The notes under the pieces: generated by a model
Seen by the model: only the letters and a program-made list of their open reading frames with translations
Told to the model about the DNA's origin: nothing
The model's database searches: none
Assembly: GCA_900551135.1 (NCBI GenBank)
Contig: URUX01000001.1
Coordinates: 1 to 47,298, forward strand
Reading direction: 5' to 3'
DNA length: 47,298 nucleotides
Origin: an uncultured Clostridium sp.
Lineage (GTDB): Bacteria; Bacillota; Clostridia; Lachnospirales; Lachnospiraceae
In this document: positions 33,634-42,600 of the stretch, piece after piece
How the letters are laid out: each line of letters begins with the position of its first letter
Numbering within the stretch: the first letter of the stretch is position 1
Translations under genes and position numbers: made by a program

Positions 33634-34689
33634 ATGGAAAAAAAGACGGTAGCAGTTTTGTTTGGAGGCCAGTCCTCAGAACATGTAGTTTCCTGCATGT
33701 CGGCTGCAAACGTAGTAGAACAGATTGACACAGATAAATATAATCTTCTGCTGATAGGGATTACGGAGGATGGCCGCTGGCTGAAAGCGCCGTCACTGGA
33801 TTCGATTCGGGACGGAAGCTGGAAAGAAAGCAGGGCAGAAGCGGTGATTCTTCCAGATGCCACAAAAAAATGTGCATTAATTAAAGAGGGAAGTTCCTGG
33901 CAGGAGGTTGCTATAGACGGAGCGTTTCCGGTTCTTCACGGGCTGTATGGAGAAGACGGCACGGTTCAGGGCTTGTTTGAACTGGCCCGCATTCCCTATG
34001 TAGGCTGCGGCGTACTGGCTTCCGCGGTTTCCATGGATAAACTGTATACCAAGATTATTGTAGATGATCTGGGGATTCGCCAGGCGGCTTATGAGCCTGT
34101 GATGAAAGAACAGCTGACCCATATGGATGAAGTGGTAAGCCGCATAGAAGCCAGATTTTCTTATCCGGTATTTATTAAGCCCAGCAACGCAGGATCATCG
34201 AAAGGCGTTTCCAAGGCAGAAGACAGAGAGAGCCTGATCGAAGGCCTTTGGGAAGCGGCACGGCACGACAGAAAGATTCTGGTAGAAGAAACCATTGTGG
34301 GCCGGGAAATCGAGTGCGCTGTTTTTGGAGGCGGTTCGGTACCGGTGGAGGCCTCTGGTGTCGGAGAGATTTTAGCTGCTGCTGATTTCTATGATTTTGA
34401 TGCAAAGTATTATAATGCAGAGTCCAGGACGGTAGTCGATCCGGAACTGCCTGGAGACGCTGCCGAGACAGTCAGAAAAAATGCGGCGGCTATTTTCAGC
34501 GCGGTAGACGGCTATGGCCTTGCCCGCGTGGACTTCTTTGTGAAAGAGGAGGGAGAAGTAGTCTTTAATGAAATCAATACGCTGCCTGGATTTACAGCGA
34601 TCAGTATGTATCCTATGCTTTGGGAAGCAAGAGGCATTGATAAAAAAACTCTGGTGAACCGGCTGATTGAGCACGGTCTGGCACGTTAG
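33634..34689 (+). CDS. ddl: D-alanine--D-alanine ligase
   Basis: VAVLFGGQSSEHVVS, HGLYGEDGTVQGLFEL, the ATP-grasp motifs and NEINTLPGFT are present. Confidence 0.95.
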   Translation: MEKKTVAVLFGGQSSEHVVSCMSAANVVEQIDTDKYNLLLIGITEDGRWLKAPSLDSIRDGSWKESRAEAVILPDATKKCALIKEGSSWQEVAIDGAFPVLHGLYGEDGTVQGLFELARIPYVGCGVLASAVSMDKLYTKIIVDDLGIRQAAYEPVMKEQLTHMDEVVSRIEARFSYPVFIKPSNAGSSKGVSKAEDRESLIEGLWEAARHDRKILVEETIVGREIECAVFGGGSVPVEASGVGEILAAADFYDFDAKYYNAESRTVVDPELPGDAAETVRKNAAAIFSAVDGYGLARVDFFVKEEGEVVFNEINTLPGFTAISMYPMLWEARGIDKKTLVNRLIEHGLAR

Positions 34690-34735
34690 CCGCCTTCAGG
34701 AGTGAGAAGTTAAGCAATCAGGAGGGAAGAACCAG

Positions 34736-35557
34736 ATGACAGACAGAAATGCCTCCATTGGCGTTTTTGATTCCGGCGTTGGAGGCCTTACCGTGGCCAG
34801 AGAGATTATTCGCCAGATGCCGGATGAAAGAATGATCTATTTTGGAGATACGGCCAGAGTTCCTTATGGAAGCAAGTCTAAGGACAATATTATCCGGTTT
34901 TCCAAACAGATAATCCGTTTTTTGAAAAGCAAGCAGGTAAAGGCCATTGTAATTGCCTGCAATACAGCCAGTGCCTATGCGCTGGAGGAAGTAAAAAGAG
35001 AATTGGACATTCCGATTATCGGAGTGATTCGGGCCGGGGCTGTCAGCGCTGTAAAGGCAACCCAAAATGGAAAGATTGGTATTATTGGCACAGAGGGAAC
35101 CATCCGCAGCGGTATTTATGAAACCGTTATAAAAGAATTGATGCCGGATGCGCGGGTAACAGGAAAAGCCTGTCCTCTGCTGGTACCGCTGGTAGAAGAG
35201 GGACTGTTTCACGATTCTGTTACCGATGAGATTGCGTCCCGTTATCTCAGTGAATTGAAATCCAGATATGTAGATACGCTGGTTCTGGGCTGTACCCATT
35301 ATCCGCTGCTTCGTTCCACCATCAAGCGGCTTATGGGAGAAGAGGTGACTCTGGTGAATCCAGCATACGAAACAGCCATTGAACTGAGAGATTTACTGGA
35401 AGAAAAAGATTTGCTCTGTGATGAAGGAGCAGCAGAAGCTGGAGAAAAGTATCAGTTTTATGTCAGTGATTTGGCGGAGAAATTCACCAATTTTGCCTCT
35501 GCTATTCTTCCGGAGCAGGTACGGGAAACCAAAAAGATAGATATTGAAACCTATTAA
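34736..35557 (+). CDS. murI: Glutamate racemase
   Basis: IGVFDSGVGGLTV, ACNTAS and GCTHYPLL catalytic motifs are present. Confidence 0.95.
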   Translation: MTDRNASIGVFDSGVGGLTVAREIIRQMPDERMIYFGDTARVPYGSKSKDNIIRFSKQIIRFLKSKQVKAIVIACNTASAYALEEVKRELDIPIIGVIRAGAVSAVKATQNGKIGIIGTEGTIRSGIYETVIKELMPDARVTGKACPLLVPLVEEGLFHDSVTDEIASRYLSELKSRYVDTLVLGCTHYPLLRSTIKRLMGEEVTLVNPAYETAIELRDLLEEKDLLCDEGAAEAGEKYQFYVSDLAEKFTNFASAILPEQVRETKKIDIETY

Positions 35558-35559
35558 AA

Positions 35560-35710
35560 GTAACAGTTCAGCCATGCGAAGATTCAGACAGAAAAAGGCG
35601 TTGAAAGCTTGTTTTCATAAGAATTTTCCTGTCTGAATCTTCATAGGGCGGACGCCTGACGCTTCTTGTCCGCTGTAAGCGGGCAAGAAGATGTGTGGCT
35701 GAACTGTTAC
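35560..35710 (+). repeat. Palindromic intergenic repeat family, copy A (full-length, about 151 bp, nested hairpins)
   Basis: The terminal inverted repeat is GTAACAGTTCAGCC ... GGCTGAACTGTTAC. Two inner hairpins are present:
- GAAGATTCAGACAGAAAA / TTTTCCTGTCTGAATCTTC;
- CTTCTTGTCCGC / GCGGGCAAGAAG.
The element starts 3 nt after the murI stop. Confidence 0.8.
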
Positions 35711-35770
35711 TATTAAAAGACTATCCTAAATACAGTAGTTTACAGACTAATTTGGAAAGCAGGAGGCAAT

Positions 35771-36217
35771 ATGACAAAAGATGTACTCGTCACAGTCAGC
35801 GGACTTCAGACCATGGGCGGTGAGAGCGATCAGATTCAGGTCATTACCGCAGGAAATTATTATCAGAAAAATGGAAAACACTATATTGTTTATGATGAGA
35901 TGATAGAAGGATTTGATGGTCCGGTTAAAAACACAATTAAAGTAGGAGAAGATACCATGGATGTGATTAAACATGGCGTTGCCAGTGTCCACATGGTGTT
36001 TGAAAAAGATAAAAAGCGAATCGCTTCCTATACGACTCCCATGGGAGAAATGGTCATTGGTTTAAACACCACCAATATCCAGGTGGAAGAAGAGGAAGAC
36101 GCTTTAAAGGTGCAGGTCAATTATTCCCTGGATATTAATTATGAACACGTATCGGAGTGCAACATTGTAGTCAGCGTCCAGTCCAAAGGACAGGCGGCGA
36201 TACATTTAATGAGTTAA
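35771..36217 (+). CDS. DUF1934-domain protein (YwiB-like)
   Basis: 148 aa with the pattern VITAGNYYQKNGKHYIVYDE ... TIKV ... VIKHG ... MVFE, typical of DUF1934 beta-barrel proteins. Confidence 0.75.
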   Translation: MTKDVLVTVSGLQTMGGESDQIQVITAGNYYQKNGKHYIVYDEMIEGFDGPVKNTIKVGEDTMDVIKHGVASVHMVFEKDKKRIASYTTPMGEMVIGLNTTNIQVEEEEDALKVQVNYSLDINYEHVSECNIVVSVQSKGQAAIHLMS

Positions 36218-36223
36218 AATACA

Positions 36224-36270
36224 AAAGAAGCCATGATATTGCAGGACAATAAAAATGGCTTCTTTTTTTA
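36224..36270 (+). terminator. Intrinsic terminator after the DUF1934 gene (left boundary of the AT-rich operon)
   Basis: AAGAAGCCAT-20 nt-ATGGCTTCTT is followed by T5. Confidence 0.8.
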
Positions 36271-36316
36271 AATAAATAGGTTTAAATAACAGCTTAACAA
36301 ACACTTAATAAAATAA

Positions 36317-36345
36317 TTGCTATGTGTTATTGATTGTGATATACT
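36317..36345 (+). promoter_or_regulatory. Candidate sigma-A promoter of the AT-rich operon
   Basis: TTGCTA-17 nt-TATACT with an extended -10 TG (TGATATACT), about 40 nt before the first ORF. Confidence 0.5.
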
Positions 36346-36384
36346 CAATATGTAACGTTTCGACAAGATCATCACGGTAAGGAG

Positions 36385-36867
36385 ATGATGACTTTGTATC
36401 AAAAAATTTATAATAGCATGGCGGTGATTATACGAAAAATAGAAGATAGGGCTCAAAAGGATAAGACTTTTTTAGGGCGGTTTCGCAGCTATGATAAACA
36501 GAAAGCGCAGACAATCTTGTGGGAAAAAATTCCTCTTTTATTTGAACAAGATGGGAGTGGATATAAGGAGATAGGAACTCGGGAGTTGGAACACTGGGAG
36601 GATGCAGATCAATTTATCAGCCAGTGCGATGATGATTTTGTGCTGGCATATTTGCTGCTTCAGATGGATTTGGCAATTGAAAAACGAATCCGATCAGAAG
36701 GAGAATTGTCCAATAAGATTCGCATCCTAGAGGCTTTAAACAGCAACCATAACGAAACGGCAATTATAATCCTCCCACAATTGGCCTTTTTTTGGGAGAG
36801 GAGCGGCAGAGGAACACAGCATTCTTGTTTGATGCTGATGAAGACAGTTATCCCGCAATTATTGTAA
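36385..36867 (+). CDS. Island ORF 1: hypothetical helical protein, possibly the N-terminal part of a single frameshifted gene with ORF 2
   Basis: The SD AAGGAG sits directly before ATG ATG, and an in-frame TTG at 36394 is better spaced. I recognise no family for residues 1-125. The last 24 residues (WERSGRGTQHSCLMLMKTVIPQLL) follow a T7 tract and look like out-of-frame sequence. Confidence 0.55.
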   Translation: MMTLYQKIYNSMAVIIRKIEDRAQKDKTFLGRFRSYDKQKAQTILWEKIPLLFEQDGSGYKEIGTRELEHWEDADQFISQCDDDFVLAYLLLQMDLAIEKRIRSEGELSNKIRILEALNSNHNETAIIILPQLAFFWERSGRGTQHSCLMLMKTVIPQLL

Positions 36868-37436
36868 TGCCTTCTGTCTGGAAAGCAAAAGTGAATAGCG
36901 CTGCAATTTTGACCGGATACGAAGAGGAGGTCTGCACCCAGCAGAAACAGTATCCTTATGATGGGCCTATTGTCCCAGAGGGTGTTGCCTTGCTGGAAGA
37001 TATAGAACCGGATAAGACGTTATATTTGCTCCATTGTCAGGGAATTGGAAGAATGGCGATAATGATTTGCAAGGATTTTTTGATAACGGAATATCTGAAT
37101 ATGCTGTTGGAAATAGTAAGAGTAAGTCTGATTTTAGTTCCATCCATGACGACGGGAGAGTACGATTTTAAGACAAATATCCATTCGTGTGAACATGCAG
37201 ACTGCTGCGTTGTACAGGCGAATTGCTGCTCGGCCAGATGGATGGTAAAAGAAGAACACAGGATAAAACCAGATACCTGTGGCTATTGTCTGAAAAGTGG
37301 AAAAAATCAGAACCCCAGATATTGGGGAGAGGCGAATATAATTCCGCTGGAGAGGCCGAAACTGTGCAGAACTGGCGCATGTGAAGAAGGGTGTTTGTTT
37401 TGGCAGGATTTTTATTACAAGAGAAAAAGAAGCTGA
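36792..37436 (+). CDS. Island ORF 2: nitrilase-superfamily (C-N hydrolase)-like protein with a Cys-rich C-terminus
   Basis: It shows the ordered motifs NSAAIL, QQKQYPY, IGRMAIMICKDFL, SLILVPSMT and EHADCCVVQANCCS. These match the order and spacing of nitrilase-fold motifs (NSa.., yrKihL, riG..ICyD, lll.Ps, iEn..yvv.aN). The frame is open from 36753. Alternative starts are TTG 36792 or ATG 36867, which overlaps the ORF 1 stop as TAATG. Confidence 0.55.
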   Translation: MGEERQRNTAFLFDADEDSYPAIIVMPSVWKAKVNSAAILTGYEEEVCTQQKQYPYDGPIVPEGVALLEDIEPDKTLYLLHCQGIGRMAIMICKDFLITEYLNMLLEIVRVSLILVPSMTTGEYDFKTNIHSCEHADCCVVQANCCSARWMVKEEHRIKPDTCGYCLKSGKNQNPRYWGEANIIPLERPKLCRTGACEEGCLFWQDFYYKRKRS

Positions 37437-37449
37437 AAGGAGGACTTAT

Positions 37450-38229
37450 ATGAAGTGGGACATAGAATTGTGCCGCCAGATTAGTGAGATTCATAACAGG
37501 GATATGTCCTCAGGGGAAGCCCGTCAATGGGAAGAGCGATTGATGGAGTTAAATAAGGAATACATGTATGAACTGATGCGGCTTTACCAAAAAGGGGACA
37601 AAGAACAGATGTATTCGATGCTGCGCCAGGGACAGAAGATTTCCAAGGCATTTGAGTATTCTGCGGAAAACAGCCAGCGGCTGCTGGCATACTATATGGG
37701 GCTGTTAGGTGGAATTACTTACGAGGCAGGTTTTTTGTTTCGGGATATGGCAGAGAAAAGAGAGTTCCCTATAGTAATGAAAGGGCTGTGTGCAAAAGCT
37801 CATTACAGCAATATATTGAAGTACTTATACCGGCATCCTTCGGCCCGTCATAAAGATATTGTAGAGTTTGAAAAAATTAAACCAGGTTTTCTTACGACTA
37901 TTATGAGAGATTTGGAAAAAAATGGGGCTGTAAAAAAATACTGCAGTGGGAAGGCGGTGTTCTATGAACTGACTATTGATGGAAAGGAATTTGTCGGGGC
38001 TTTAGAAGAAATGGATAATGACAGAGTTCCGCCGGATTATCTGGGAATGGCAAAGACTGGAATAAGGCCAGAACAGAACACAGCGCCTGGGTATCTGGAA
38101 AAAAGTCGGGCAGCCAAATTAGTGAAAACAAGGGATGCAGAAAAATTTGTGGCTGTCCATTATTTAGAGGCAAATAGGGAAAGAAAGCTGAAGAATAGAG
38201 ACGTATATAGCCAAAAAATGATTATATAA
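37450..38229 (+). CDS. Island ORF 3: winged-helix (MarR/ArsR-like) DNA-binding protein with a helical N-terminal domain
   Basis: The SD AAAGGAGG lies 6 nt before ATG 37450; the track ORF starts at 37381. The wHTH pattern is NILKYLYRHPSARHKDIVEFEKIKPGFLTTIMRDLEKNGAVKKYCSGKAVFYELTIDGKEF. The C-terminal tail is basic. Confidence 0.6.
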   Translation: MKWDIELCRQISEIHNRDMSSGEARQWEERLMELNKEYMYELMRLYQKGDKEQMYSMLRQGQKISKAFEYSAENSQRLLAYYMGLLGGITYEAGFLFRDMAEKREFPIVMKGLCAKAHYSNILKYLYRHPSARHKDIVEFEKIKPGFLTTIMRDLEKNGAVKKYCSGKAVFYELTIDGKEFVGALEEMDNDRVPPDYLGMAKTGIRPEQNTAPGYLEKSRAAKLVKTRDAEKFVAVHYLEANRERKLKNRDVYSQKMII

Positions 38230-38230
38230 G

Positions 38231-38884
38231 ATGGGTGAAGATATGAATGAATTAATGAAAAAAATGGAGGAAGTATTAAGCGAGATCGAAGGAAAGATGA
38301 CGCATGATGACTTGGAAAAAATTCAGGACTTGTCAGAGATTCAAGATTCTAGACTGAGAGACAGTATAAATGAACTTATCTTTGTTTTGAGAGTTCTCTT
38401 AAAACAGATGGTTTCAGATGAGGTGAAAGAAAAACTGGCAAATTGTCTGGGAAATGCGCTGGCGGAAAGAATTATAGGGATGACAGAACAATCTTTAGAA
38501 TATTATTATGCTATGGCTCCTATTCGAAATATCGAAGGGGAAAAAAACGAGACGGTCTCTAATATTATTTCTTTTGTCTTTAACAAATATATATTGCGAT
38601 ATGAGAAAAACTACTTTACAGCAGCGCTGGAATACGGGCTTGAAGGAGAAGAGTTAAAAAAGATTGCAAGGTGCCTGGATGTGCTGGTTTCTTATTATGT
38701 TCAAAAACATTATGGCCGCCAGACCATAGCGGAAGATTTGAAAGATGAAACTGGTCTGGATGAAGGGACGATTGATATAATTGTAAATCTAATAGAAGAA
38801 AATTATCAAAAGCTGCAGTTTAATGAAATTTTGGATCATCTGAGCTATCTGGGCGATAGGGTTGCAGATGTGGAATCATTATAA
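38231..38884 (+). CDS. Island ORF 4: acidic all-helical protein of unknown function
   Basis: 217 aa. It starts 1 nt after the ORF 3 stop, which suggests translational coupling. I recognise no family. Confidence 0.55.
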   Translation: MGEDMNELMKKMEEVLSEIEGKMTHDDLEKIQDLSEIQDSRLRDSINELIFVLRVLLKQMVSDEVKEKLANCLGNALAERIIGMTEQSLEYYYAMAPIRNIEGEKNETVSNIISFVFNKYILRYEKNYFTAALEYGLEGEELKKIARCLDVLVSYYVQKHYGRQTIAEDLKDETGLDEGTIDIIVNLIEENYQKLQFNEILDHLSYLGDRVADVESL

Positions 38885-38889
38885 ATACA

Positions 38890-38932
38890 AATCAAGCAGG
38901 AGACGGTCAGTTACCGTCTCCTGCTTGATTTT
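38890..38932. terminator. Bidirectional terminator (right boundary of the AT-rich operon)
   Basis: A perfect 18-bp stem AATCAAGCAGGAGACGGT / ACCGTCTCCTGCTTGATT with a 5-nt loop and T-rich flanks. Confidence 0.8.
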
Positions 38933-38953
38933 AAACTGTCTGAACAGCTTTCA

Positions 38954-39424
38954 TTATGCTTCTTTTTTGTCTTTCTTCCAGAACATCAGCTTGTCTCTTA
39001 AGCGTTTCTTCTTTGGTGCAGGCTGAATAGCTTTGCCGCGGACGCTTTTCAGTTCGGTGATGTAAAGCCCGCTGATAACAACTTTGGCTTCGCTCTTAAC
39101 CGGAAGAACCTGATAAACTTTCTCATCTGCGATGAGAGTTACAATCTTGGGACCAACCTTGGCTTTTACAATCGGCAGCTTTGCCCAGCGCATATATTTT
39201 GGGGTCTGCTCATAAACCATCTTGGGAAGGCCGGACTCTTTGATTTTTAACTTCTTTTTGTCGATTACCAGGATTGAGACAGTCTGCTTGGCAGCTTCCA
39301 TCATAGACTGGGATGCGGCCTGCTTCTTCTCTAACTTACGTCCGAAGTAGTACAGAACTCCCAGAATGATTGCAGCGATAAGCAGAATCCAAAGGATAAC
39401 ATTCAAAATTAAACTCCAGTTCAT
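38954..39424 (-). CDS. Single-pass membrane protein with a Lys-rich C-terminus, unknown function
   Basis: 156 aa with an N-terminal TM helix (LILNVILWILLIAAIILGVLYYF). The SD GGAGGT precedes the ATG. GC content looks like the flanking core genes, not like the island. Confidence 0.6.
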   Translation of the reverse strand: MNWSLILNVILWILLIAAIILGVLYYFGRKLEKKQAASQSMMEAAKQTVSILVIDKKKLKIKESGLPKMVYEQTPKYMRWAKLPIVKAKVGPKIVTLIADEKVYQVLPVKSEAKVVISGLYITELKSVRGKAIQPAPKKKRLRDKLMFWKKDKKEA

Positions 39425-39463
39425 CGGGCAATACCTCCAACAGTTTCCTTATGTATAGGTAAG

Positions 39464-39492
39464 AGTATACCATTTTTAATGAAAAAACGCAA
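39464..39492 (-). promoter_or_regulatory. Candidate sigma-A promoter for the 38954..39424 gene
   Basis: On the minus strand it reads TTGCGT-17 nt-TATACT with an extended -10 TG. Confidence 0.45.
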
Positions 39493-39522
39493 GCAAAAGT
39501 AAATTTTCTCTTAAGATTACGC

Positions 39523-39551
39523 TTGACAGCTTGACAACTATATGGTAAACT
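39523..39551 (+). promoter_or_regulatory. Candidate sigma-A promoter for rpoB-rpoC
   Basis: TTGACA-17 nt-TAAACT. A second overlapping TTGACA lies 8 nt downstream. Confidence 0.55.
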
Positions 39552-39645
39552 GGAATGTGCACTATTGTGGCAATTTAGGCCTTTACGGGTCAATTGCGCC
39601 CAAAAATAAAACGTGAAAGAAAAAGAAAACAGGGGTGAAACGTCA

Positions 39646-42600
39646 ATGGAGAAAAGCAAGATGCGTCCGGTGCCGGCCGGTAAGAGCGTAAGAATGAGCT
39701 TCTCAGGACAGAAAGAAGTCTTAGAGATGCCAAACCTGATTGAGATTCAGAAAAACTCCTATCAGTGGTTCTTAGACGAAGGACTCAAGGAAGTGTTTGA
39801 AGACATCTCTCCGATTGCAGATTTTGCAGGTCATTTAAGCCTGGAATTTGTGGACTTTACATTATGTAAGGATGACATTAAGTACACCATCGAAGAGTGC
39901 AAAGAGAGAGACGCTACTTATGCAGCGCCTTTAAAGGTAAGAGTGAGACTTTGCAACAAAGATAAAGATGAGATTAATGAACATGAGATTTTCATGGGCG
40001 ATCTTCCGCTTATGACTGACACAGGCTCTTTCGTTATCAATGGAGCAGAGCGAGTTATCGTTAGCCAGTTGGTTCGTTCACCTGGCATCTACTACGGGAT
40101 TGCCCACGACAAGGTAGGAAAAGAACTGTACAGCTGTACCGTTATTCCGAACCGTGGCGCCTGGTTAGAGTACGAGACGGATTCTAACGATATTTTCTAT
40201 GTCCGCGTAGACCGTACCAGAAAAGTTCCGGTTACAGTATTGATTCGTGCACTGGGTTATGGTACAAACGCAGAGATTATTGATTTGTTCGGTGAAGAGC
40301 CGAAATTGCTGGCCAGCTTTGGTAAGGATACTTCCGATAATTACCAGGATGGCTTATTAGAGTTATATAAAAAGATCCGTCCAGGCGAGCCGTTATCCGT
40401 TGATAGTGCAGAAAGCTTGCTTAACAGCATGTTCTTTGACCCCAGAAGATATGATTTGGCAAAAGTAGGCCGTTATAAATTTAATAAAAAACTGGCATTT
40501 AAGAATCGAATCAAAGGCCATACCCTGGCGGAAGATGTCGTTGACACCACCACCGGAGAGATTCTGGCAGAGGCCGGCACCAAGCTGGATAAGGAAATGG
40601 CAGATAAGATTCAGAATGCAGCAGTTCCGTTTGTATGGATTGAAGGACCGGAGCGCAGGCAGAAAGTTCTGTCCAATATGATGGTAGATCTGGCTTCCTA
40701 TGTTTCCTTTGATCCGGAAGAGGTTGGAGTTACAGAGTTAGTTTACTATCCTGTACTGGAATCTATCCTGTCAGAAGTTGGAACTTCCGATGAGGAAGAG
40801 TTGAAATCAGCCATCCGCCGCAGTATTCACGAACTGATTCCAAAGCATATTACCAAGGAAGATATTCTGGCTTCCATTAACTACAATATGCATCTGGAAG
40901 AAGAAGTGGGAAATGCAGACGACATTGACCATCTGGGCAACCGTCGTATCCGTGCAGTCGGAGAACTGCTTCAGAATCAGTACCGCATCGGTTTGTCCCG
41001 TATGGAACGTGTGGTAAGAGAGCGTATGACCACTCAGGATATGGAGGGAATCACTCCGCAGTCCTTAATTAATATTAAACCGGTAACTGCTGCAGTTAAA
41101 GAGTTCTTTGGCAGTTCCCAGCTGTCCCAGTTTATGGATCAGAACAACCCGCTGGCTGAACTGACCCATAAGAGACGTCTGTCTGCATTAGGTCCTGGCG
41201 GTCTGTCCAGAGATCGTGCCGGATTCGAGGTTCGAGACGTACATTACACCCATTACGGACGTATGTGCCCGATCGAGACTCCTGAAGGACCGAACATCGG
41301 TCTGATTAACTCTCTGGCAACTTATGCAAGGGTAAATGAATATGGATTTATTGAGGCGCCTTACCGCGTTCTGGACAAGTCCGATCCGTTAAATCCGGTT
41401 GTAACCGACGAGGTTGTATACCTGACTGCTGACGAAGAAGATAACTTCGTAGTTGCACAGGCGAACGAGCCGTTAGACGAGGACGGACATTTCGTTCATA
41501 ATAACGTATCCGGACGTTTCCGCGAGGAGACATCCGAGTTCCAGAAAAAGAGAATCGACCTGATGGACGTTTCCCCGAAGATGGTATTCTCTGTGGCAAC
41601 TTCCATGATTCCGTTCCTGGAGAACGACGACGCAAACCGTGCGCTGATGGGTTCCAACATGCAGCGTCAGGCAGTGCCGCTGTTATCAACCGAAGCGCCT
41701 GTTGTCGGTACTGGTATTGAGAACAAGGCAGCAGTTGACTCCGGCGTGTGCGTAGTGGCTAAAAATGCTGGTGTGGTAGAGAGATCTGCTTCTAATGAGA
41801 TTATCATTAAGAGAGACTCTGACGGCAACCGCGATGTATACCATCTGACCAAATTTAAGAGAAGCAACCAGTCCAACTGCTACAATCAGAAGCCGATTGT
41901 ATATAAAGGCAACCATGTACAGGCTGGAGAGGTTATTGCAGACGGCCCGTCCACTTCCAAGGGCGAGATTGCTCTGGGCAAGAACCCGTTAATCGGATTT
42001 ATGACCTGGGAAGGTTATAACTACGAGGATGCGGTTCTCTTAAGCGAGCGTCTGGTTCAGGAAGACGTATATACTTCCGTTCATATTGAGGAATACGAGG
42101 CAGAAGCCCGTGATACCAAGCTGGGACCGGAAGAAATTACCCGCGACGTTCCAGGCGTAGGTGAAGATGCATTAAAAGACCTGGATGAGAGAGGAATTAT
42201 CCGTATTGGTGCAGAAGTCCGCGCCGGCGATATTCTGGTTGGCAAGGTAACTCCTAAGGGAGAAACTGAACTGACTGCAGAAGAAAGACTGCTTCGTGCA
42301 ATCTTTGGCGAGAAGGCCAGAGAAGTCCGCGACACTTCCTTAAAAGTACCTCACGGCGCATACGGCATCATTGTAGACGCTAAGGTATTTACCAGAGAAA
42401 ATGGAGACGAACTGTCACCAGGCGTAAATGAGACTGTCCGTATCTACATTGCTCAGAAGAGAAAGATTTCTGTAGGCGATAAGATGGCAGGACGTCACGG
42501 AAACAAGGGTGTCGTTTCCCGTGTACTTCCAGTAGAAGATATGCCATTCCTTCCAAACGGCCGTCCTCTGGACATCGTGCTGAATCCTCTGGGCGTACCT

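Follow-up and report, generated by a model that had tools for sequence, protein, structure and literature searches.

A recurrent three-gene cassette built around a divergent nitrilase-fold protein, and its broken copy between DUF1934 and rpoB in an uncultured Clostridium sp.

In contig URUX01000001.1 of an uncultured Clostridium sp., a discrete unit (positions 36271-38935) lies between a DUF1934 gene on one side and the small gene orf5 followed by rpoB on the other. What does this block encode, and what might it be for? A previous sequence-only reading of the window (the whole 47,298-nt stretch analyzed here, to which all coordinates refer) had described it as an AT-rich operon of four genes acquired horizontally, and had proposed an accessory system with an anti-phage or toxin-antitoxin-like layout. 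We find that the block is one operon of three genes, named A, B and C, and we hold this anatomy with high confidence. The explanation that best accounts for the data as a whole combines this anatomy with a role of the intact cassette as a conflict-type module, and we place it just short of an even chance. The features of the block are as follows.

36223-36270, plus strand: intrinsic terminator of the DUF1934 gene and left edge of the cassette (hairpin 36223-36266, then a T run; fold -18.1 kcal/mol, z -5.35)
36317-36345, plus strand: sigma-70-type promoter of the cassette, found by consensus scan (-35 TTGCTA, 17-nt spacer, TG-extended -10 TATACT)
36385-37436, plus strand: gene A, a pseudogene overall by alignment to intact homologues
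36385-36826, plus strand: 5' fragment of gene A, codons 1-147, covering the helical N-terminal domain and the beginning of the domain after it, by alignments to intact homologues
36826-36827, no strand: junction of a 370-bp deletion with 1-nt microhomology, by collinearity with contig L112
36828-37436, plus strand: 3' fragment of gene A, in the frame of open reading frame (ORF) 2 (36792-37436), by alignments to intact homologues
37450-38229, plus strand: gene B, 259 amino acids, ATG at 37450 behind a GGAGGA ribosome-binding site
38231-38884, plus strand: gene C, 217 amino acids (213 if the start is at 38243), directly after B
38889-38931, both strands: 19-bp perfect hairpin, bidirectional terminator of gene C (plus) and orf5 (minus) and right edge of the cassette, by consensus scan and fold

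ORF 1 (36385-36867) and ORF 2, previously read as overlapping genes, are opposite ends of a single gene of about 470 amino acids, gene A, split by a 370-bp out-of-frame deletion at 36826, and the supposed four-gene operon is in fact A-B-C. With the joined ORF 1 and ORF 2 as query, homologues of 456-477 amino acids were retrieved, from which the window copy differs by the lack of an internal block of about 120 residues; the merged 351-residue model suggested earlier does not represent a native protein. An intact A allele of 470 amino acids is present in contigs L112-L114, which come from three independent samples and represent the nearest lineage. These contigs are 93-95% identical to the window and collinear with it but for one clean 370-bp gap (window 35739-36826 corresponds to L112 1594-2681, and window 36826-39500 to L112 3051-5725). 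The same deletion junction was recovered by comparison with contig L018. The broken allele is also found in assemblies L015 and L016, 100% identical over 2.8 kb, and therefore the deletion is not an assembly error.

Beyond the junction, the reading of the 5' fragment goes on in a wrong frame as far as the stop codon at 36867, where ORF 1 ends. Besides shifting the frame, the deletion removes about 120 codons, including the FPEM(I/L)G motif that holds the catalytic Glu, and any enzyme-dependent function of the window copy is therefore lost. Of the nitrilase-fold domain, the 3' fragment keeps the C-terminal two-thirds, where the Lys, second Glu and Cys (MICKDF) motifs lie, and it also keeps the Cys-rich tail; the joined fragments match the PADLOC RTasNitrilase profile at E 1.5e-4. 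We also considered whether the overlap between ORF 1 and ORF 2 could stem from programmed frameshifting or from slippage within the T7 run at 36793-36799. Both were rejected, since the ORF 1 frame still matches homologues past this run (FWERSGRGTQHS; FWER.GRGTQHS) and the ORF 2 frame matches them from LFDADEDSYP on; the break is the deletion at 36826. Judged from these alignments, gene A of the window is almost certainly a pseudogene, and ORF 1 and ORF 2 should be annotated as such, under one name.

The edges, promoter and packing of the block agree with the earlier description. The two terminators that bracket it were recovered as stable folds: the right-hand hairpin folds at -32.7 kcal/mol on the plus strand (z -9.6) and at -33.7 kcal/mol on the minus strand, with z about -9. 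Homology with relatives in which the site is empty (see below) stops at 36229, inside the left terminator region. The TTGCTA-17-TATACT promoter proposed before is where it had been placed and bears a TG extension; its -35 element, spacing and TGnTATACT are kept in 8 related lineages. The ORF positions behind the claim of tight gene packing are also correct. As to composition, the block, at 39.7% GC, indeed ranks lowest among all 2.66-kb stretches of the window, whose mean is 45.0 +/- 2.4%; a value this low is reached by only 0.3% of the sliding windows. Gene by gene the contrast is modest, with 36-43% in the block, 41% in the DUF1934 gene and 48% in rpoB, and the 28-47% versus 45-60% given previously overstates it. 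In accordance with the earlier account, ORF and Pfam scans detected no integrase or transposase in the block. There is no repeat at the insertion boundaries; the sole flanking direct repeat, the 11-nt GCTTCTTTTTT, was rejected as an insertion scar because it lies off the boundaries set by the empty site. No Rfam family was found in 35400-39700. In the 5' untranslated region of gene A (36370-36392), the sequence ATCATCA...GGAGATGATG is conserved in seven lineages and can fold into a hairpin that encloses the ribosome-binding site and start codon. Such a masking hairpin was predicted in three lineages; it was discarded, being no stabler than shuffled sequence (z -0.5 to -1.4).

To what family does protein A belong? 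The earlier suggestion of a remote nitrilase-fold pattern in ORF 2 was borne out by structure prediction on an intact ortholog, P0003, which was used instead of the broken window copy. The AlphaFold2 model, built from a 38-sequence alignment, has a predicted local distance difference test score (pLDDT) of 91.3 and a predicted template-modeling score of 0.92; a run from 6 sequences (pLDDT 53.5) was set aside. The model displays the four-layer alpha-beta-beta-alpha sandwich. A Foldseek search of the PDB with it gave 98 matches at E <= 1e-3, and all 50 that were listed are nitrilase-superfamily enzymes, among them Nit2, amidases, D-carbamoylase, beta-ureidopropionase and the glutaminase domain of NAD (nicotinamide adenine dinucleotide) synthetase; the best match is 4HG3 (E 2.5e-9). 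Residues P246, E247, K306, E323 and C347 (P0003 numbering) are invariant across the 38 sequences, which share 19-58% identity, and they align with the catalytic residues of Kluyveromyces lactis Nit2. The Glu-Lys-Cys triad and the second Glu are thus found throughout this set, and the window copy lacks the first Glu by deletion of its motif. N-terminal to the nitrilase domain, A carries a bundle of helices some 105 residues long and then a beta-rich stretch of some 80 residues, and its C-terminal tail holds four conserved Cys (C392, C400, C452 and C456 in P0003).

Profile searches place A at the margin of the described families. Pfam CN_hydrolase (PF00795) was matched by 7 of the 38 members, weakly (best E 1.2e-5); neither the window fragments nor P0003 gave any Pfam match, and the PF00795 gathering score was not reached. 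The PADLOC model RTasNitrilase was matched by 21 of the 38 members (best E 6.9e-10), CARF_nitrilase by eight, weakly, and RT_UG5-nitrilase by two. The relation to defense-associated nitrilases proposed by the sequence-only reading is supported to this extent, by weak profile matches. Judged by its modeled fold and catalytic residues, and not by a Pfam threshold, the A family is a very divergent branch of the nitrilase superfamily. In an exhaustive profile search, with clusters counted at 50% identity, it comprises 819 cluster representatives at E <= 1e-3, 485 of them at E <= 1e-10, and most are 450-520 amino acids long and align almost from end to end. The family is covered by neither an NCBIfam model nor a dedicated Pfam model, and it has no curated annotation. 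A large family, abundant in Firmicutes of the human gut and rumen, is thus left unannotated.

Gene B (ORF 3) scores just above the threshold of Pfam MarR (25.3 bits against a cut-off of 24.6; E 1.4e-5), and a profile of 26 B proteins retrieved AspA, MJ223 and MarR from the PDB at E 2.5e-5 to 1e-4, in line with the MarR/ArsR-like winged helix recognized before. B homologues are 230-300 amino acids long, with about 115 residues before the central winged helix and a variable tail behind it; read off the alignment, the region before the winged helix appears helical. On these matches, B is a winged-helix protein and is predicted to bind DNA. Protein C is acidic, and its conserved C-terminal half contains D-E-T-G. 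As in the first inspection of ORF 4, no family could be recognized: Pfam, NCBIfam, PADLOC and PDB searches gave no credible match. Matches to COMMD-HN, Sld5 and a gasdermin-like helical domain (E 0.04-0.15) were rejected as noise. The sequence and weak matches to helical-bundle proteins suggest that C is all-helical. Between the window and L018, the ratio of non-synonymous to synonymous substitution rates (dN/dS) is 0.39 for B and 0.15 for C; B and C are intact here and, by this measure, under purifying selection.

Is the cassette a recurrent unit? We collected 104 loci of the A family, the narrower alignment A4 being used for the metagenome scan since A3 was too diverse. A, B and C stand together in 48 of these loci, which form 23 non-redundant groups. 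B follows A in all A-B-C loci, and C follows B in 49 loci. Outside the clade of the window, the flanks differ between A-B-C groups and most contexts are unrelated. Distant A genes lie, for example, after the atp operon (L019), near an integrase (L020), beside an AAA_15/AAA_21/DUF4435 ATPase (L022) and beside gerA (L023); at these four loci, A is followed by a gene of 230-300 codons and then by one of 204-229 codons, whose homology to B and C was found by BLAST and iterated hidden Markov models. Further A-B-C contexts are beside metG and beside an IS21 element. In this survey, the A family came only from gut and rumen metagenomes, with Firmicutes as hosts. Co-occurrence, which the sequence-only reading had left to be checked, is therefore found in 23 non-redundant groups, mostly in unrelated contexts. 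On the evidence of gene order and homology, A-B-C is a conserved, so far unannotated cassette of gut and rumen Firmicutes. No fourth conserved gene could be added to it, since the ORFs of 630-670 amino acids found after C are unrelated to each other (GH20, MetRS, BlaR1, a zinc-ribbon protein and a transposase).

In the family at large, A is full length with few exceptions, and most loci without A-B-C show a different arrangement: A is paired with a NUDIX hydrolase of 186-188 amino acids (Pfam E 1.2e-17), the stop and start codons overlap, and neither B nor C is present. The NUDIX partner resembles ADP-ribose pyrophosphatases, and these loci (L027-L082, e.g. L027 8001-9969) come from rumen and gut metagenomes. 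A neighbor-joining tree unites the NUDIX-linked A proteins in a single clade that lies inside the A-B-C diversity, and the wider contexts of this clade vary. We read the NUDIX gene in place of B-C as a partner swap, and not as chance adjacency.

How did the cassette come to this locus? The order spoIIR (minus strand), ddl, murI, DUF1934, A-B-C, orf5 (minus strand), rpoB is found in six of six GTDB species representatives with close A relatives and in many metagenomic contigs. The earlier reading had named ddl-murI-DUF1934 and rpoB correctly as flanks and had overlooked orf5. Between these lineages, the flanking proteins are 74-99% identical, whereas identity is 35-54% in the N-terminal part of A, 57-71% in its C-terminal part, 37-50% in B and 34-55% in C. 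The cassette is common to several species here, whose flanking proteins have drifted apart to about 75% identity, and is therefore old at this site and not a recent insertion. Sequence comparison thus indicates that the cassette at this locus is ancestral to a group of Lachnospiraceae species and evolves much faster than its flanks.

The cassette has also been lost. One segment of the window has no counterpart in a sister lineage, as found by blastn against contigs L109-L111:

36230-38928, no strand: segment without counterpart in L109-L111

In these contigs, the flanks are 88.5-95% identical to the window, and the stop codons of DUF1934 and orf5 are separated by 72 nt with nothing between. 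Judged from this alignment, the cassette is dispensable and has been wholly deleted in one sister lineage. The idea of horizontally acquired cargo holds as far as an accessory, mobile-looking gene set is concerned, given this empty site and the unrelated contexts elsewhere; a recent drop-in is contradicted by its presence in several species at the locus. The proposed comparison across relatives showed presence in the six species representatives and absence from L109-L111. The sequence-only reading had named three outcomes that would speak against it, namely universal presence in relatives with host-like composition, assignment to a known pathway, and lack of co-occurrence elsewhere, and none of them was fully observed.

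Loss can also affect A alone. At this locus, A has been inactivated independently at least five times, by the following lesions.

Lesion 1: 370-bp deletion (window, L015, L016)
Lesion 2: 244-bp deletion between 14-nt repeats (L018)
Lesion 3: Trp-to-stop change at codon 68 (L012, L105, L106)
Lesion 4: 4-bp GTCC duplication (L107)
Lesion 5: deletion with frameshift (L014)

Intact A alleles occur in the same or the nearest lineages (L108, L011, L013 and L112-L114), and every lineage at this locus keeps B and C intact. Single species harbor A as intact, deleted, nonsense and frameshift alleles, and a sister lineage has lost the whole cassette; the locus is a clean natural example of effector-first decay. 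Compared with L018, the window shows a synonymous divergence of 0.07-0.11 for A and B (36828-38226), 0.33 for C and 0.37-0.52 for ddl, murI and DUF1934 (33634-36217). The low values in A and B suggest a recent recombinational exchange between lineages that carry different A deletions.

What, then, would an intact cassette do? We tentatively regard it as a conflict-type module, either for abortive-infection phage defense or toxin-antitoxin-like, with doubt somewhat outweighing belief. A would act as an effector hydrolyzing an amide or amine C-N bond of an essential small molecule, possibly of the nucleotide or NAD type. Sensing of a trigger, or restraint of A, would fall to B, C and the fast-evolving N-terminal domain of A, and B would probably also autoregulate the conserved promoter. 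On this view, a potentially toxic effector would be costly to keep, which would account for the repeated loss of A alone. We favor such a module because A has a weak affinity for the profiles of defense-linked nitrilases, because all but the catalytic domain evolves fast, and because the distribution is patchy, with loss of the whole cassette and effector-first decay. It is also favored because the exchange of B-C for NUDIX resembles the partner and module swaps described for defense systems (PMC9226505), and because the nitrilase of DRT1, a defense-associated reverse transcriptase (DRT) system, sets a precedent as an immune effector (PMC13275509).

The genomic neighborhood was scanned for defense and mobility genes among 92 proteins encoded within three genes of the cassette, in 19 locus groups outside the clade of the window and including three genes inserted within this clade. 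Among the 92 are four AAA_15/AAA_21 ATPases with matches (best E 2.2e-85) to AbiL, AriA, GajA or PtuA models, and two integrases of phage type; transposases also occur. These matches give a suggestive defense-island signal. Moreover, contig OLRV01000192.1 contains a segment of at least 10.4 kb twice (L073 6953-17374 and L074 781-11202), the copies being 99.96% identical and 17,035 bp apart; the segment carries A-B-C, an IS21-type IstA/IstB pair and two S-adenosylmethionine-methyltransferase-like genes. Either this is a mobile or duplicated element, or the repeat arose in assembly. Carriage by phages, viruses or plasmids was considered and rejected, since the collections searched (named below) gave no match; BFVD yielded only a cyanophage CN hydrolase.

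Several observations weigh against a conflict role. The matches of A to the defense nitrilase profiles are weak, and only profile scores link it to the reverse transcriptase (RT)-associated clade; B and C match nothing specific in PADLOC, only by generic winged-helix similarity. Most neighbors of the cassette are housekeeping genes (ATP synthase, MetRS, SMC, FtsY, citrate synthase and others), and the defense-gene signal consists of four proteins from a small sample with no background control set. The IMG/VR viral contigs, GenBank phages and PLSDB plasmids that were searched contained no relative. A MarR-like protein beside an enzyme is the classic layout of a regulated catabolic operon, and niche-specific catabolic genes are likewise patchy and often pseudogenes. 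Finally, purifying selection on B and C without A fits a role independent of A equally as well as an orphaned antitoxin or regulator.

The main rival is accordingly a niche operon for catabolism, detoxification or metabolite repair, which we judge rather unlikely. A would be an amidase or nitrilase acting on a dietary amide or nitrile or on a damaged metabolite (cf. Nit1/Nit2), B a MarR-like repressor sensing the substrate and C an accessory subunit; the loss of A would be due to relaxed selection where the substrate is absent. The best structural matches of A are indeed metabolic enzymes (Nit2 omega-amidase, aliphatic amidases, D-carbamoylase and beta-ureidopropionase). However, A is extended by a fast-evolving N-terminal domain and contains a Cys cluster, both of them absent from metabolic nitrilases, and it fits the defense nitrilase profiles better (6.9e-10) than Pfam CN_hydrolase (1.2e-5). 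Similarly, B passes the Pfam MarR threshold, but its winged helix sits in the middle of the protein after a long helical N-terminus, unlike that of compact MarR dimers. The restriction of the family to gut and rumen metagenomes in this survey and the mostly housekeeping neighbors would suit a catabolic operon, and the NUDIX pairing recalls Nit-Fhit (1EMS is among the Foldseek matches); yet no transporter or additional catabolic genes accompany the cassette, and its proteins diverge far faster than the flanks.

A selfish addiction module, toxin-antitoxin-like and with no role against phages, is still less probable. A would be the toxin and B and/or C the antitoxin and autorepressor, maintained by post-segregational killing, and the toxin would be lost first. 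This would account for the repeated inactivation of A with B and C kept intact, and it agrees with the tight operon, the DNA-binding protein and a conserved promoter of autoregulatory style, with presence/absence polymorphism and with the one contig whose duplicated segment carries the cassette and an IS21 element. However, no copy of the cassette turned up in the plasmids and phages searched, the setting in which an addiction module would be of most use, its components are much larger than those of classical type II systems, and it is kept at one chromosomal locus across several species. There is a similarly slim chance that B and C serve the cell in some way independent of A, B for instance regulating other genes, and that this clade is reducing the cassette to B-C with A dispensable: both genes are intact in every lineage at the locus with a broken A and have the dN/dS values given above in two lineages without a working A, but B and C homologues were never found without an adjacent A or A remnant in the 104 loci, searches seeded with B and C gave only cassette-type relatives, and the survival of intact alleles within the same species shows that the A lesions are recent, and the retention of B and C may therefore simply reflect too little time for decay.

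Two further genes at the locus belong to the flanks and not to the cassette.

35771-36217, plus strand: DUF1934 gene (Pfam E 2e-36)
38954-39424, minus strand: orf5, 156 amino acids, with an N-terminal hydrophobic segment and no family match (ORF list, Pfam)

The product of orf5 is 81-95% identical across the clade; the gene is also present in genomes without the cassette and is a conserved neighbor of rpoB. In relatives, the slot between C and orf5 holds a DDE transposase gene in L011 (9030-10913) and a gene for a zinc-ribbon protein of 669-776 amino acids in L013 (8935-11714) and L014 (8846-11176), L013 also having an ORF of 213 amino acids. With such other cargo in this slot, the gap between DUF1934 and rpoB is therefore a recurrent insertion site. 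Upstream, the spacer between murI and DUF1934 contains 24-nt inverted repeats (35551-35574 and 35696-35719, 92% complementary), and the segment 35562-35710 is reversed in L109-L111 relative to the window, with no Rfam match. The region 35551-35719 may thus be an invertible DNA switch upstream of DUF1934.

How does the cassette compare with known systems? With the enzymes of the nitrilase superfamily (yeast and mouse Nit2, aliphatic amidases and D-carbamoylase; PDB 4HG3, 2W1V, 3HKX and 6LEI), A shares the fold, with a target template-modeling score of up to 0.66, and the Glu-Lys-(Glu)-Cys motifs, which correspond residue for residue to those of K. lactis Nit2. It differs from them in that identity is merely 8-18% and most A members stay under the PF00795 threshold. 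Moreover, A has about 185 extra N-terminal residues and the four-Cys C-terminal tail, and always B-C or NUDIX as partner. The NUDIX form invites comparison with NitFhit (PDB 1EMS), in which a nitrilase fold is likewise coupled to a nucleotide-pyrophosphate hydrolase. The partner there is of the HIT family and is fused to the nitrilase in one eukaryotic polypeptide, and the likeness is an analogy only, silent on A-B-C.

For B, MarR-type regulators are compact homodimers of about 150 amino acids that dimerize through N- and C-terminal helices and have a ligand pocket, whereas B has 230-300 amino acids and its winged helix in mid-protein. Regulators of the Csa3/CasR type show some similarity: 13 of 43 B and C members weakly match PADLOC Csa3 (best E 3.6e-6), and one B sequence matches NCBIfam cas_HTH (E 5e-4, 19.5 bits against a cut-off of 60.2). 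Csa3 chains were absent from the PDB profile search with B, and no cas genes were present among the Pfam families listed for the 92 neighbors. The reading of B as a CARF/Csa3 protein was set aside, as the matches are sub-threshold and can be explained by the winged helix. The similarity is most likely confined to this domain, and the N-terminal part of B is read as helical and not as CARF. Fusions of CARF to nitrilase resemble A itself through the weak CARF_nitrilase matches of the eight members mentioned above.

The nearest counterparts in defense are the nitrilases of DRT type 1 (UG1), UG5 and UG29, which, like A, have a C-N hydrolase domain in a non-metabolic accessory context; the RT-associated nitrilase model of PADLOC is the best profile match for 21 of the 38 A members. 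The UG1/DRT type 1 fusions of RT and nitrilase fall into class 3 of the UG/Abi RTs (PMC9226505), and not into "class 1" as had been stated. Their nitrilase domain is a proven immune effector in DRT1, its substrate and that of the UG5 nitrilase being still unknown (PMC13275509). The earlier observation that the block contains no RT was confirmed by Pfam and NCBIfam scans of A, B and C; RT, alpha-repeat and primase domains were found neither in these proteins nor in the families listed for the 92 neighbors. In contrast to DRT systems, the partners in the cassette are a winged-helix protein and a helical protein, and the hosts are Firmicutes. With the defining RT absent, the cassette is not a DRT system. 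No system listed in PADLOC-DB v2.0.0 is fully matched, A hitting nitrilase-domain models only, and no description of a nitrilase cassette without an RT was found in the literature searched. What appears to be new here is thus a nitrilase in an RT-free architecture; what the cassette does we infer from sequence, the copy in the window being dead.

Could the conflict-type module be a new anti-phage system? In its most specific form, A-B-C would be an RT-free system in which a free-standing nitrilase effector is checked or triggered by a sensor pair, one winged-helix and one helical, with a sister form that uses NUDIX. We consider this rather unlikely. If it were true, the NUDIX pairing would point to a substrate derived from a nucleotide or NAD, and the repeated knock-outs of A would be natural evidence of autoimmune cost. 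The cassette would then also offer a three-protein model for what defense nitrilases such as that of DRT1 hydrolyze, in a simpler setting with no RT and no filament.

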